From a virus (lineage: Duplodnaviria; Caudoviricetes): DNA of 37,366 nucleotides. The translations under genes were made by a program, and so were the position numbers. The stretch's first letter is position 1. The number at the start of each line of letters is the position of its first letter. The notes beneath the pieces were generated by a model. It did not search any database. It worked only from the letters and a program-made list of their open reading frames with translations, and was not told where the DNA came from. This document shows, piece after piece, positions 8,187 to 33,710 of the stretch. The stretch is taken from positions 1 to 37,366 of IMG/VR virus record IMGVR_UViG_3300020431_000017; one strand, given 5' to 3'.

Positions 8187-8270
8187 TGCGAGTAGGGAGA
8201 CTTGAACTCCCACGAGATTGCTCTCAACAGATTTTAAGTCTGGTGCGTCTACCGATTCCGCCATACTCGC
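8187..8270 (-). tRNA. trnL-UAA: tRNA-Leu(UAA), long variable arm, CCA not encoded
   Basis: GCGAGTATGGCGGAATCGGTAGACGCACCAGACTTAAAATCTGTTGAGAGCAATCTCGTGGGAGTTCAAGTCTCCCTACTCGCA: acceptor stem GCGAGTA/TACTCGC, anticodon loop CT-TAA-AA, TTCAA T-loop, discriminator A. Confidence 0.95.
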
Positions 8271-33196: not shown

Positions 33197-33222
33197 AAAA
33201 AATGAGAGGTTTCCCTCTCATT
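33197..33222 (-). terminator. Intrinsic terminator of the riboswitch/DUF4278 unit
   Basis: AATGAGAGG-GAAA-CCTCTCATT-TTTT, perfect 9-bp stem with GNRA loop. Confidence 0.85.
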
Positions 33223-33246
33223 TAACACTATTCAATTTTTTAAAAC

Positions 33247-33414
33247 TTACTTTACGTAAGTACGACCACGATAGCAGAAAGTCCCGTGAGACTCTTTGCT
33301 TTCTACACAACGAGTAGCATACTCAACACCACGATATGAGGTGTGAAGAACTTGTGCGTCGTGAATAGCAGATGCTTTGTTGATCTGCTTCTTGATCATG
33401 TTTAGTGTATTCAT
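33247..33414 (-). CDS. DUF4278-like small protein (55 aa)
   Basis: Not in ORF track: MNTLNMIKKQINKASAIHDAQVLHTSYRGVEYATRCVESKESHGTFCYRGRTYVK*; two YRGxxY motifs; AGGAG RBS. Confidence 0.8.
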   Translation of the reverse strand: MNTLNMIKKQINKASAIHDAQVLHTSYRGVEYATRCVESKESHGTFCYRGRTYVK

Positions 33415-33447
33415 TGTAGGTACTCCTAAAGTAGTTGGATTTTAATC

Positions 33448-33673
33448 CGTTCCTTTAGTCGTTTGCGTCCCATGGATAGCACTCAGGTGTAGATTCCTTA
33501 ACGGTCTCTACTAACTCTACCTTAAAAGCATCAGAGAGATTCTCGTTTGCTTTCATCTTCAGGATAATTCCATCAGCTTGTTGGCAGGTGAGTGATGAAT
33601 ATAAAAGAAATTCAATCATGGGATCAACGGTTCCGTTGCGCGACTTACTTGCGTCCGATATCTCGGATGAACG
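33448..33673 (-). ncRNA. Glutamine riboswitch (glnA-type), apparently double/nested aptamer
   Basis: CGTTCA-[TCCGA GATA TCGGA]-CGCAAGTA-AGTCG ... CGACT-AAAG-GAACG follows the glnA aptamer layout (P1 CGUUC/GAACG, P2, loop-E AGUA, P3); upstream of a DUF4278-like gene. Confidence 0.75.
33455..33619 (-). CDS. Small protein (54 aa) embedded in the riboswitch
   Basis: Not in ORF track: MIEFLLYSSLTCQQADGIILKMKANENLSDAFKVELVETVKESTPECYPWDAND*; its start and stop codons lie in riboswitch helices. Confidence 0.65.
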   Translation of the reverse strand: MIEFLLYSSLTCQQADGIILKMKANENLSDAFKVELVETVKESTPECYPWDAND

Positions 33674-33681
33674 ATAGGTCT

Positions 33682-33710
33682 ATTATAGACCTCATAATCT
33701 ATTTAGTCAA
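33682..33710 (-). promoter_or_regulatory. sigma70-type promoter of the riboswitch transcript, with overlapping late-like ACTAAATA
   Basis: TTGACT(33710-33705)-17 bp-TATAAT(33687-33682); predicted +1 near 33675, immediately before the aptamer. Confidence 0.85.

Follow-up and report, generated by a model that had tools for sequence, protein, structure and literature searches.

A candidate strand-swapped, two-core glutamine riboswitch enclosing a small gene in cyanophages

Introduction

The two aptamers of glycine and of guanidine-II riboswitches lie side by side and dock by tertiary contacts, and the c-di-AMP riboswitch holds two sites in one fold. Some glnA RNAs also occur in tandem (Weinberg 2010, PMC2864571), and 157 doublets of glutamine aptamers have been counted as pseudo-cooperative (Sherlock 2022, PMC9481103); tandem glutamine aptamers are reported to be non-cooperative in vitro, with no expression platform or benefit known for them (Ruff 2016, PMC5066625). 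The glnA alignment of PMC2864571 contains the 5′ half of P-SSM2, the 3′ half of S-PM2 and many marine reads as stand-alone aptamers. Riboswitches were reported to be rare in phages, with only two glutamine aptamers in cyanophage genomes (McCown 2017, PMC5473149).

Glutamine aptamers fall into two classes. Glutamine-I (RF01739) is represented by the Synechocystis gifB/IF17 leader, for which an anti-RBS helix has been postulated that nucleotide 60 leaves for the ON state (PMC6212724), and by the 5DDP construct (PMC5393176). Glutamine-II (RF01704; PDB 6QN3) contacts its ligand through C1, G18, C39 and G40, with a C19:G41 pair and a G35 triple; it forms a strand-exchanged dimer in the crystal and is functional as a two-piece RNA (PMC6698751).

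Here, we describe an element on the minus strand of a 37-kb linear virus record (37,366 nucleotides, the whole of which was analysed and is called the window). Its outer head shares P1, P2, J2/3 (CGSAAGUA), P3, J3/1 (RAAG) and the 23-60 pair with glutamine-I, and, like the gifB leader, the element precedes a DUF4278 gene and is a predicted ON switch acting via nucleotide 60 (PMC6212724). It differs from glutamine-I in that P3 opens into a permuted second core and not a hairpin, that a whole gene can lie in either P2 loop, that the anti-SD helix uses the J3/1 strand, that J3/1 reads AAAG and not GAAG, and that it scores 22 bits against a cut-off of 35. Two cores lie a few nucleotides apart in the window, as they do in tandem glnA RNAs (PMC2864571); whereas the tandem rows are drawn as independent sequential aptamers, covariation indicates that the family described here is a strand-swapped single fold with one expression platform. 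The inner head resembles glutamine-II in having a ligand core that lacks loop E and in the DUF4278 target, but it is a three-way junction free of the glutamine-II pseudoknot, a P1-equivalent formed in a helix loop and followed immediately by the 3′ strand of that helix (PMC6698751). Two sites served by one expression platform are also found in tandem glycine, guanidine-II and pseudo-symmetric c-di-AMP riboswitches; none of the dual-site riboswitches listed in PMC9481103 has a nested permuted copy or a gene in a loop, and the word “permuted” is absent from that paper. The available parts of PMC9004378, PMC9602691, PMC12379486, PMC8682795 and PMC5393176 likewise do not describe the nested form, and a search of the literature other than Ames & Breaker 2011, Ren 2015 and Additional Files 1, 3 and 7 of PMC2864571 gave no nested, permuted or gene-enclosing glutamine riboswitch.

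Methods

Homologous loci were collected by one protein search (80 kept of 240), by four viral pattern scans (120 loci each) and from eight named phages. Complete elements were parsed in 78 of the 80 protein-chosen loci (two of these contigs start inside the element), in 110/120, 98/120, 113/120 and 11/120 loci of the scans, and in 8/8 named phages; those non-parsing loci that were inspected proved to be truncated, chance matches or variants. The low yield of 11/120 belongs to the scan for G23 with a short P3, whose remaining loci were chance matches. The 282 distinct elements were reduced to 281 by strict re-parsing (L485 dropped). A parser control on 120 chance matches from cellular genomes (drawn from 8 of 64 parts) returned no complete element. 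The protein-chosen loci were selected without regard to the RNA, and at least one scan left the discriminating positions free; because the search patterns and the parser fix some bases, counts of invariance are partly built in. A later metagenome scan supplied a held-out set of 119 loci, 103 of them complete, with 94 new elements.

Results

The element lies in a compact predicted transcription unit

Genes near the element encode a single-strand DNA-binding protein, PhoH and thymidylate synthase, and the element region matched 437 phage records by blastn, its relatives being Synechococcus and Prochlorococcus phages; from these neighbours and relatives, we infer a T4-like cyanophage as the source. 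The unit runs from a sigma70-type promoter through the two-core RNA with its 54-aa ORF to a 55-aa DUF4278-like ORF and a terminator. Outside the RNA itself, it comprises:

33705–33710, minus strand: TTGACT, sigma70-type −35 box (11 of 12 consensus positions together with the −10 box, 17-nt spacer; by consensus match)
33682–33687, minus strand: TATAAT, −10 box, ending 9 nt before P1 (a −10-like box in 269/281 homologues)
33676–33692, minus strand: inverted repeat AGGTCTA/TAGACCT over the −10 box
33247–33414, minus strand: 55-aa DUF4278-like (IF17-like) gene, phrog_545 (E 6e-35; PF14105 at E 3.6e-4, below the Pfam cut-off)
33200–33223, minus strand: intrinsic terminator-like hairpin at the end of the unit (sequence prediction)

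The transcript would start near 33675, 2 nt before P1. An inverted repeat of at least 5 bp at the −10 box is common in homologues (191/232 distinct upstream 26-mers, against 30 in shuffles), with varying sequence; a natural control stretch further upstream has one in 97/274. The repeat might act as an operator or form a hairpin at the 5′ end of late or read-through transcripts. The motif TAAATA, which we take to be T4-late-like, stands just upstream in 139/281 homologues.

In Syn9 (L444), S-RIM50 and S-SM1 (L447, L448), the unit sits between nrdB and talC; in the window, it is flanked by a glutaredoxin-like gene on one side and, on the other, by small genes that precede the thymidylate synthase gene and phoH. 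As its neighbours differ, the unit has moved as a module. Among the sequencing runs searched for expression, none contained half of the stretch's words. Contigs of relatives from four metatranscriptome studies span roughly 33250–33680; they give neither strand nor ends, and are therefore not counted as evidence.

Patterns of the element match an estimated 2,500 and 2,300 viral stretches, mostly true (110/120 and 113/120 parsed), which contrasts with the two cyanophage aptamers reported in PMC5473149. In 401 cyanobacterial genomes, the junction pattern found no real element; its one match (1/401) is coding-like, without P2 or 3′ half, and a reversed control pattern gave 11 matches in the same phylum sample. 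Compact natural versions of 85–100 nt occur in the cultured phages S-PM2, ACG-2014f and S-CREM1, which makes the architecture directly testable. The S-CREM1 element is annotated simply as glnA, 99 nt, and S-PM2, entered in the 2010 alignment by a 3′ half, in fact carries a complete two-core element.

Parts of the two-core RNA

A sequence-only reading of this DNA had proposed a glutamine aptamer with a second, circularly permuted aptamer inside its P3, and every strand that it named was located on the minus strand where it had placed it. In order of transcription, the parts are:

33669–33673, minus strand: outer P1 5′ strand CGUUC (CGTTC), C1 being a ligand-contact position (in 2 elements, a C-G pair with the last strand has become U-A by a double change)
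33654–33667, minus strand: outer P2 hairpin TCCGA/TCGGA, from the fold
33646–33653, minus strand: outer J2/3 CGCAAGTA (CGCAAGUA), with G22 at 33652, C23 at 33651 and the AGUA half of loop E
33641–33645, minus strand: shared P3 5′ strand AGUCG
33633–33640, minus strand: inner J3/1 CG, inner P1 3′-type strand CAACG (33638–33634) and the inner G60-equivalent (33633)
33625–33629, minus strand: inner P1 5′-type strand CGUUG, which follows its partner (circularly permuted)
33617–33623, minus strand: inner P2 5′ strand UCCCAUG, holding the nested start codon
33455–33619, minus strand: nested 54-aa ORF, phrog_504 (E 3e-28), with two conserved Cys and a predicted helical hairpin
33468–33474, minus strand: inner P2 3′ strand CAUGGGA
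33462–33467, minus strand: inner J2/3 CGCAAA, with the G22-equivalent at 33466 and the C23-equivalent at 33465, without loop E
33457–33461, minus strand: shared P3 3′ strand CGACU, from fold and covariation
33447–33456, minus strand: outer J3/1 AAAG (33456–33453), outer P1 3′ strand GAACG (33452–33448) and G60 (33447)

Free-energy minimisation of 33440–33680 yields precisely the nested fold (z −2.25; 6 of 200 shuffles equally stable), and a loose two-core pattern matches the window once and 200 doublet-shuffled windows not at all. The inner CAACG/CGTTG hairpin of the sequence-only reading stands; the GAAC that it took for a mere loop (33633–33630) is more than that, as 33633 is the conserved G60-equivalent and pairs with C33465. 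Nor do the two heads have the pseudo-symmetry suggested for them: the inner junction (CGCAAA / CG) lacks loop E, and the outer one has a loop-E-type site. The enclosed ORF, the downstream DUF4278-like gene and the expression platform did not figure in that reading.

Covariation favours nested over sequential pairing

Because the P1 strands are interchangeable in 251/281 elements, only variant elements discriminate between the nested fold and a sequential tandem. At P1 position 5, 30 of the 281 elements pair in the nested fold only and none in the sequential fold only: 28 of them, the window included, have changed their two inner strands to CAAC/CGUUG with no change in the outer pair, and two elements of a further type also turn the outer pair into U-A. 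CAACG always accompanies CGUUG, and GAACG always CGUUC, in the 281 elements and in the held-out set. The 23-60 pair divides 33 to 0 in the same direction, with 4/281 broken under both models, and has a crossed pattern, in which a G23 in the first junction is matched by C following the last P1 strand, and the C23 in the second junction by G following the first; base 23 of the outer J2/3 thus covaries, C23 with the last G60 and G23 with the last C60. In a long-P3 subfamily (AGCCGACN / NGCCGACU; P-SSM4, MED4-213, S-PM2, S-CREM1), the inner end pair of P3 across the inner head is U-A, A-U or G-C, and 30 elements of 107 are nested-only vs. 0. In the short-P3 elements, the shared P3 is fully cross-paired in 170/171, with an AGUCA/UGACU double change in seven. 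Covariation in favour of sequential pairing, which would have spoken against the proposed nesting, was thus looked for at three positions and found in no element. The held-out elements gave 3:0 at P1 and 12:0 at the 23-60 pair for the nested fold, together with further cross-paired P3 types; one of the 94 breaks the outer 23-60 pair and one the P3 end pair.

The 34 compact long-P3 elements allow both folds to be scored throughout: 99.5% of cells are paired in the nested fold vs. 91.3% in the sequential one. When nested, their 23-60 pair is C-G in 21 and G-C in 13 and their P3 end pair U-A in 14, A-U in 10 and G-C in 10, with none broken; when sequential, the former is broken in 12/34 and the latter in 20/34. 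In an RNAalifold consensus of 16 compact short-P3 elements, the outer and inner P1 helices and the two P2 stems were recovered together with 4 of 5 P3 pairs, the register differing at the inner junction. Only in the nested outer head are the loop E halves AGUA and RAAG brought together.

On trees, the inner P1 swap is supported by 7/7 independent pairs on supported branches (p 0.016), between bases about 10 nt apart that could recombine together. The 23-60, P3 and P3-length traits have 1–5 supported independent pairs each (short-gene trees being weak); all of these pairs favour nesting, and no trait reaches significance by itself. Closely spaced positions in general could co-travel through recombination; the case for nesting rests on at least seven distinct types of double change, all in agreement. 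Taken together, these patterns make it very probable that the two cores are nested on a shared P3, with the inner one circularly permuted.

The enclosed 54-codon gene

The nested ORF fills the inner P2 loop of about 150 nt, and its stop codon TAA is made of the last P3 base and the first two bases of outer J3/1. Judged by comparison of sequences, the looped-out ORF is a real gene: the median dN/dS is 0.22 (1,161 pairs of 72 distinct 53-codon coding sequences), and the last codons are frozen at synonymous sites, with GCA of inner J2/3 in 72/72. The ORF starts 3–10 nt into the stem in 216/217 long inner loops and in 53/54 long outer loops, and the inner stop lies at the P3/J3-1 border in 208/217 elements. 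Relatives exist in four states (no gene, inner-loop gene, outer-loop gene, or both); Syn9 (gp196/gp197), S-TIM5, P-SSM4 and MED4-213 have annotated genes in both P2 loops and a DUF4278-like gene next. Some outer-loop genes stop at the loop E/P3 border, a mirror image of the inner gene.

Two cysteines, never more or fewer, and a hydrophobic N-terminus are common to all 256 distinct loop proteins; between the proteins of the outer and the inner loops, homology is weak (hhalign probability 39%, E 3e-4; 21/203 by HMM). For the nested protein, Pfam gave no match, the Atlas returned hypothetical clusters only, and 125 representatives were all unnamed. Its AlphaFold model (pLDDT 80) has helices at 12–24 and 30–43, and in a structure search with this model, the matches at E<=0.001 were all to cyanophage proteins without characterisation, while the PDB gave none. 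Many database homologues are 75–82 aa long, probably owing to start calls extended upstream through the riboswitch.

GAG/GAGC linkers in the inner P1 loop dominate in gene-bearing forms and are absent from gene-less forms; an SD in this loop was rejected as a requirement, the linker of the window being GAAC. The nested start codon is buried in both modelled states and costs 13 kcal/mol to open, and we would put the nested gene's own regulation by glutamine at slightly under an even chance.

Both heads retain the glutamine-contact positions

No Rfam family matches the element at gathering level, the only match in the window being a tRNA (8187–8270, minus strand, 59 bits; anticodon loop UAA, Leu). 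The check suggested by the sequence-only reading, Infernal with the Rfam glnA and Downstream-peptide models, gave sub-threshold scores for the 5′ half, namely 22 bits for RF01739 (cut-off 35) and 20.4 bits for RF01704 (cut-off 33); the former is low because the insert splits the model. Six compact relatives score 40–44 bits with RF01739, above the cut-off of 35, their inner core being absorbed as a 38–48-nt local end in P3 (in the three alignments shown), and gene-bearing forms fall outside Rfam detection.

The outer head is a three-way junction of P1, P2 and P3 with P1 CGUUS/SAACG, and its loop E site has AGUA opposite AAA in the window and opposite GAA in 200/281 elements; J3/1 reads AAAG in place of GAAG in 81/281, window included. 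The long-range 23-60 Watson-Crick pair is present in the outer head of all 34 compact elements, with C-G/G-C covariation, and in the inner head of all 34, with one double change. A YRG-motif ORF lies downstream in 240/281, as expected of a 5′ UTR of a DUF4278 or nitrogen gene. A single aptamer with a simple terminal loop on P3 is not what was found, as P3 leads to a second junction in 281/281 parsed elements, and glutamine-II does not fit either, neither GAACG being followed by a pseudoknot-bearing helix. By these features, the element is an architectural variant within the glutamine-I riboswitches, whose outer head has most of the defining ones; as a whole it stands apart from plain glutamine-I by its second junction and its sub-threshold Rfam score, and it is not a sequential tandem.

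Equivalents of the contacts C1, G22, G54, C58 and G59 are present in both heads of the window, and equivalents of glutamine-II C1, G18, C39, G40, C19:G41 and G35 are kept in both heads. The outer head is accordingly placed by its conserved contacts as a highly likely glutamine binder; the inner head, which lacks loop E and has a 2-nt J3/1, a junction absent from both solved structures, probably binds glutamine as well. Coding does not account for the conservation of the inner core, since the core is also kept in gene-less forms. Positive cooperativity between the two putative sites is a tentative suggestion.

An alternative helix covers the downstream ribosome site

The predicted expression platform consists of two parts that compete with the outer head:

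33437–33448, minus strand: alternative ligand-free hairpin GGAU/AUCC using G59 and G60 (mean pair probability 0.94 in the model)
33423–33431, minus strand: CUUUAG (33431–33426), partner of CUAAAG 33458–33453 in the predicted OFF state, overlapping the SD AGGAG (33427–33423)

The first J3/1 base and its partner covary in the anti-SD helix: A-U in 79 elements, A·C in 0, G·U in 74 and G-C in 72 (13 elements without a parsed SD excluded), and A-U in 29, A·C in 0, G·U in 23 and G-C in 17 of the held-out 94. On the tree, this pattern is never opposed (about six informative independent pairs, median p 0.03), and it explains the AAAG variant of J3/1. In the window, opening the SD costs 5.8 kcal/mol with the aptamer strand free vs. 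3.1 kcal/mol with it bound; the cost is higher with the strand free in 215/240 elements and lower in 10, and the real anti-SD strand beats all 12 shuffles in 27/31 elements. The G23-C60 clade has a different anti-SD hairpin, in which C60 and its neighbours pair with the SD. From the anti-SD helix, its covariation, the opening cost of the SD and this gifB-like C60 hairpin, it is likely that glutamine acts as a translational ON switch for the DUF4278 (IF17-like) gene.

In a secondary-structure model of the whole leader, to which tertiary contacts do not contribute, the OFF fold reaches −72.9 vs. −66.6 for the nested fold, with an outer P1 probability of 0.001. The modelled OFF advantage of about 6 kcal/mol would be large for a weak ligand, tertiary contacts lying outside the model. 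In L444 (Syn9), L448, L125 and L134, an extra GC-rich hairpin of 20–25 nt lies between the aptamer and the downstream SD, and in Syn9 the anti-SD helix still forms around it. The C-terminus of IF17 is needed for GS binding, and short proteins like the DUF4278-like product of the window lack it (PMC6212724).

Discussion

Our analysis suggests, with a probability of about 0.6, that two cores nested on a shared P3 around a 54-codon gene work as a translational ON switch for the DUF4278 gene. Comparison among homologous sequences shows that the pairing is nested, that both cores are conserved, that the looped-out gene is coding and that an alternative helix lies over the ribosome site; the conserved contacts point to binding at two sites. 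Without glutamine, the outer 3′ strand (CU(A/G)AAG, with G59-G60) would pair with CUU(U/C)AG and AUCC and hide the SD; with glutamine, the inner and outer pockets would close on the shared P3 and capture the 3′ strand together with G60, which would leave the SD free. To translate the nested gene, a ribosome would have to melt inner P1, inner P2, P3 and also the anti-SD strand, because the nested stop codon lies within that strand; since these helices would be melted, translation of the nested gene likely competes with folding of the sensor and may couple to the downstream gene. Given that the nested start is buried in both modelled equilibrium states, the enclosed gene would have to be controlled kinetically, by a race between ribosome loading and closure of inner P2.

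One alternative is an ordinary sequential tandem, in which each CGUU pairs with the AACG of its own core, first with first and second with second, and each core has a small P3 to itself. The interchangeable P1 strands of most elements permit it, AGCCGACU can be drawn as a 2-bp hairpin, and the 2010 glnA alignment aligns the halves in this way; yet no element fits it alone at any of the three discriminating positions, short-P3 forms have no self-hairpin, and for the window it entails C·C and G·G mismatches and an energy about 6 kcal/mol worse than that of the nested fold, so that it has next to no probability. Another possibility keeps the nested fold and has only the loop-E outer head bind, the inner core being a clamp that organises P3 and sequesters the nested start. 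Singlet glycine switches carry a ghost aptamer that is comparable to such a clamp. The missing loop E of the inner head, the change of inner C23 to A in 2/281 and 3/94 elements, one element with CAACC, and the ligand-free formation of inner P1 and P2 in the model (0.99, 0.97) are consistent with one site, as is the lack of cooperativity reported for tandem glutamine aptamers in PMC5066625. Against this, the inner core keeps unpaired and contact positions, and not helices alone, even in ORF-free compact forms; its 23-60 pair has a double change of its own (L452); and glutamine-II binds without loop E (PMC6698751). We regard a one-site switch as unlikely, and as the strongest of the alternatives.

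It is also conceivable, if improbable, that the RNA is not a working phage glutamine sensor: it would instead sense a protein or some other ligand that reports nitrogen status, or its main role would be in the translational coupling or the stability of a small-gene operon. Binding of glutamine is so far a prediction, the modelled gap of 6 kcal/mol favours OFF, and a ribosome terminating at the stop codon within the anti-SD strand could by itself open the downstream SD; however, every glutamine-contact base is as in validated aptamers, gene-less compact forms retain both cores and the anti-SD, and the downstream gene is of the DUF4278 type that validated glutamine switches control. Still less probable is a two-piece or trans form, in which a cut in the inner P1 loop, or assembly from two molecules, would make the halves a heterodimeric sensor. 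Both halves do start alike (NN-CGUUC-A-P2-AUG), the inner P1 loop tolerates an insert of about 60 nt and apparently a whole ORF (L177, L273), and the glutamine-II crystal is a strand-swapped dimer of an RNA functional as two pieces (PMC6698751), but a loop of 3–5 nt makes a one-chain hairpin the default (probability 0.99).

The nested two-core switch likely arose when a glnA aptamer whose P3 was a tiny AG-CCGA-CU hairpin was duplicated in tandem, after which the two hairpins would have exchanged strands; P3 was then likely shortened to 5 bp in the lineage of the window. If the two-core switch is confirmed, phages would directly read the nitrogen status of the host during infection, the puzzle of tandem glutamine aptamers that have no known platform or benefit (PMC5066625) would have an answer, and a riboswitch would have been built through natural domain swapping, with coding sequence supplying the parts of an aptamer that surrounds a whole gene. 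A wider reading, doubtful in its full extent, is that a two-site glutamine riboswitch with swapped strands is widespread among the cyanomyoviruses of sea and fresh water and that its P2 loops serve as gene cassettes, a single fold enclosing up to two genes and preceding a third; cooperative binding of glutamine would shut the enclosed genes and open the GS-inhibitor-like gene, giving opposite outputs from one polycistronic RNA, and many “tandem glnA” aptamers of the literature would be the same architecture misdrawn.

Two further observations concern insertions and neighbours of the element. The inner P1 loop of L177 carries an insert of about 60 nt, and in L273:1–345 an open frame of at least 113 codons, whose 3′ end is similar to the L177 insert, ends just before the inner CGTTC; this frame may belong to a mobile gene, perhaps homing-endonuclease-like, that entered the riboswitch loop. 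In P-SSM4 (L442:1–106), a manA RNA (82.9 bits) lies about 90 nt upstream of the element.
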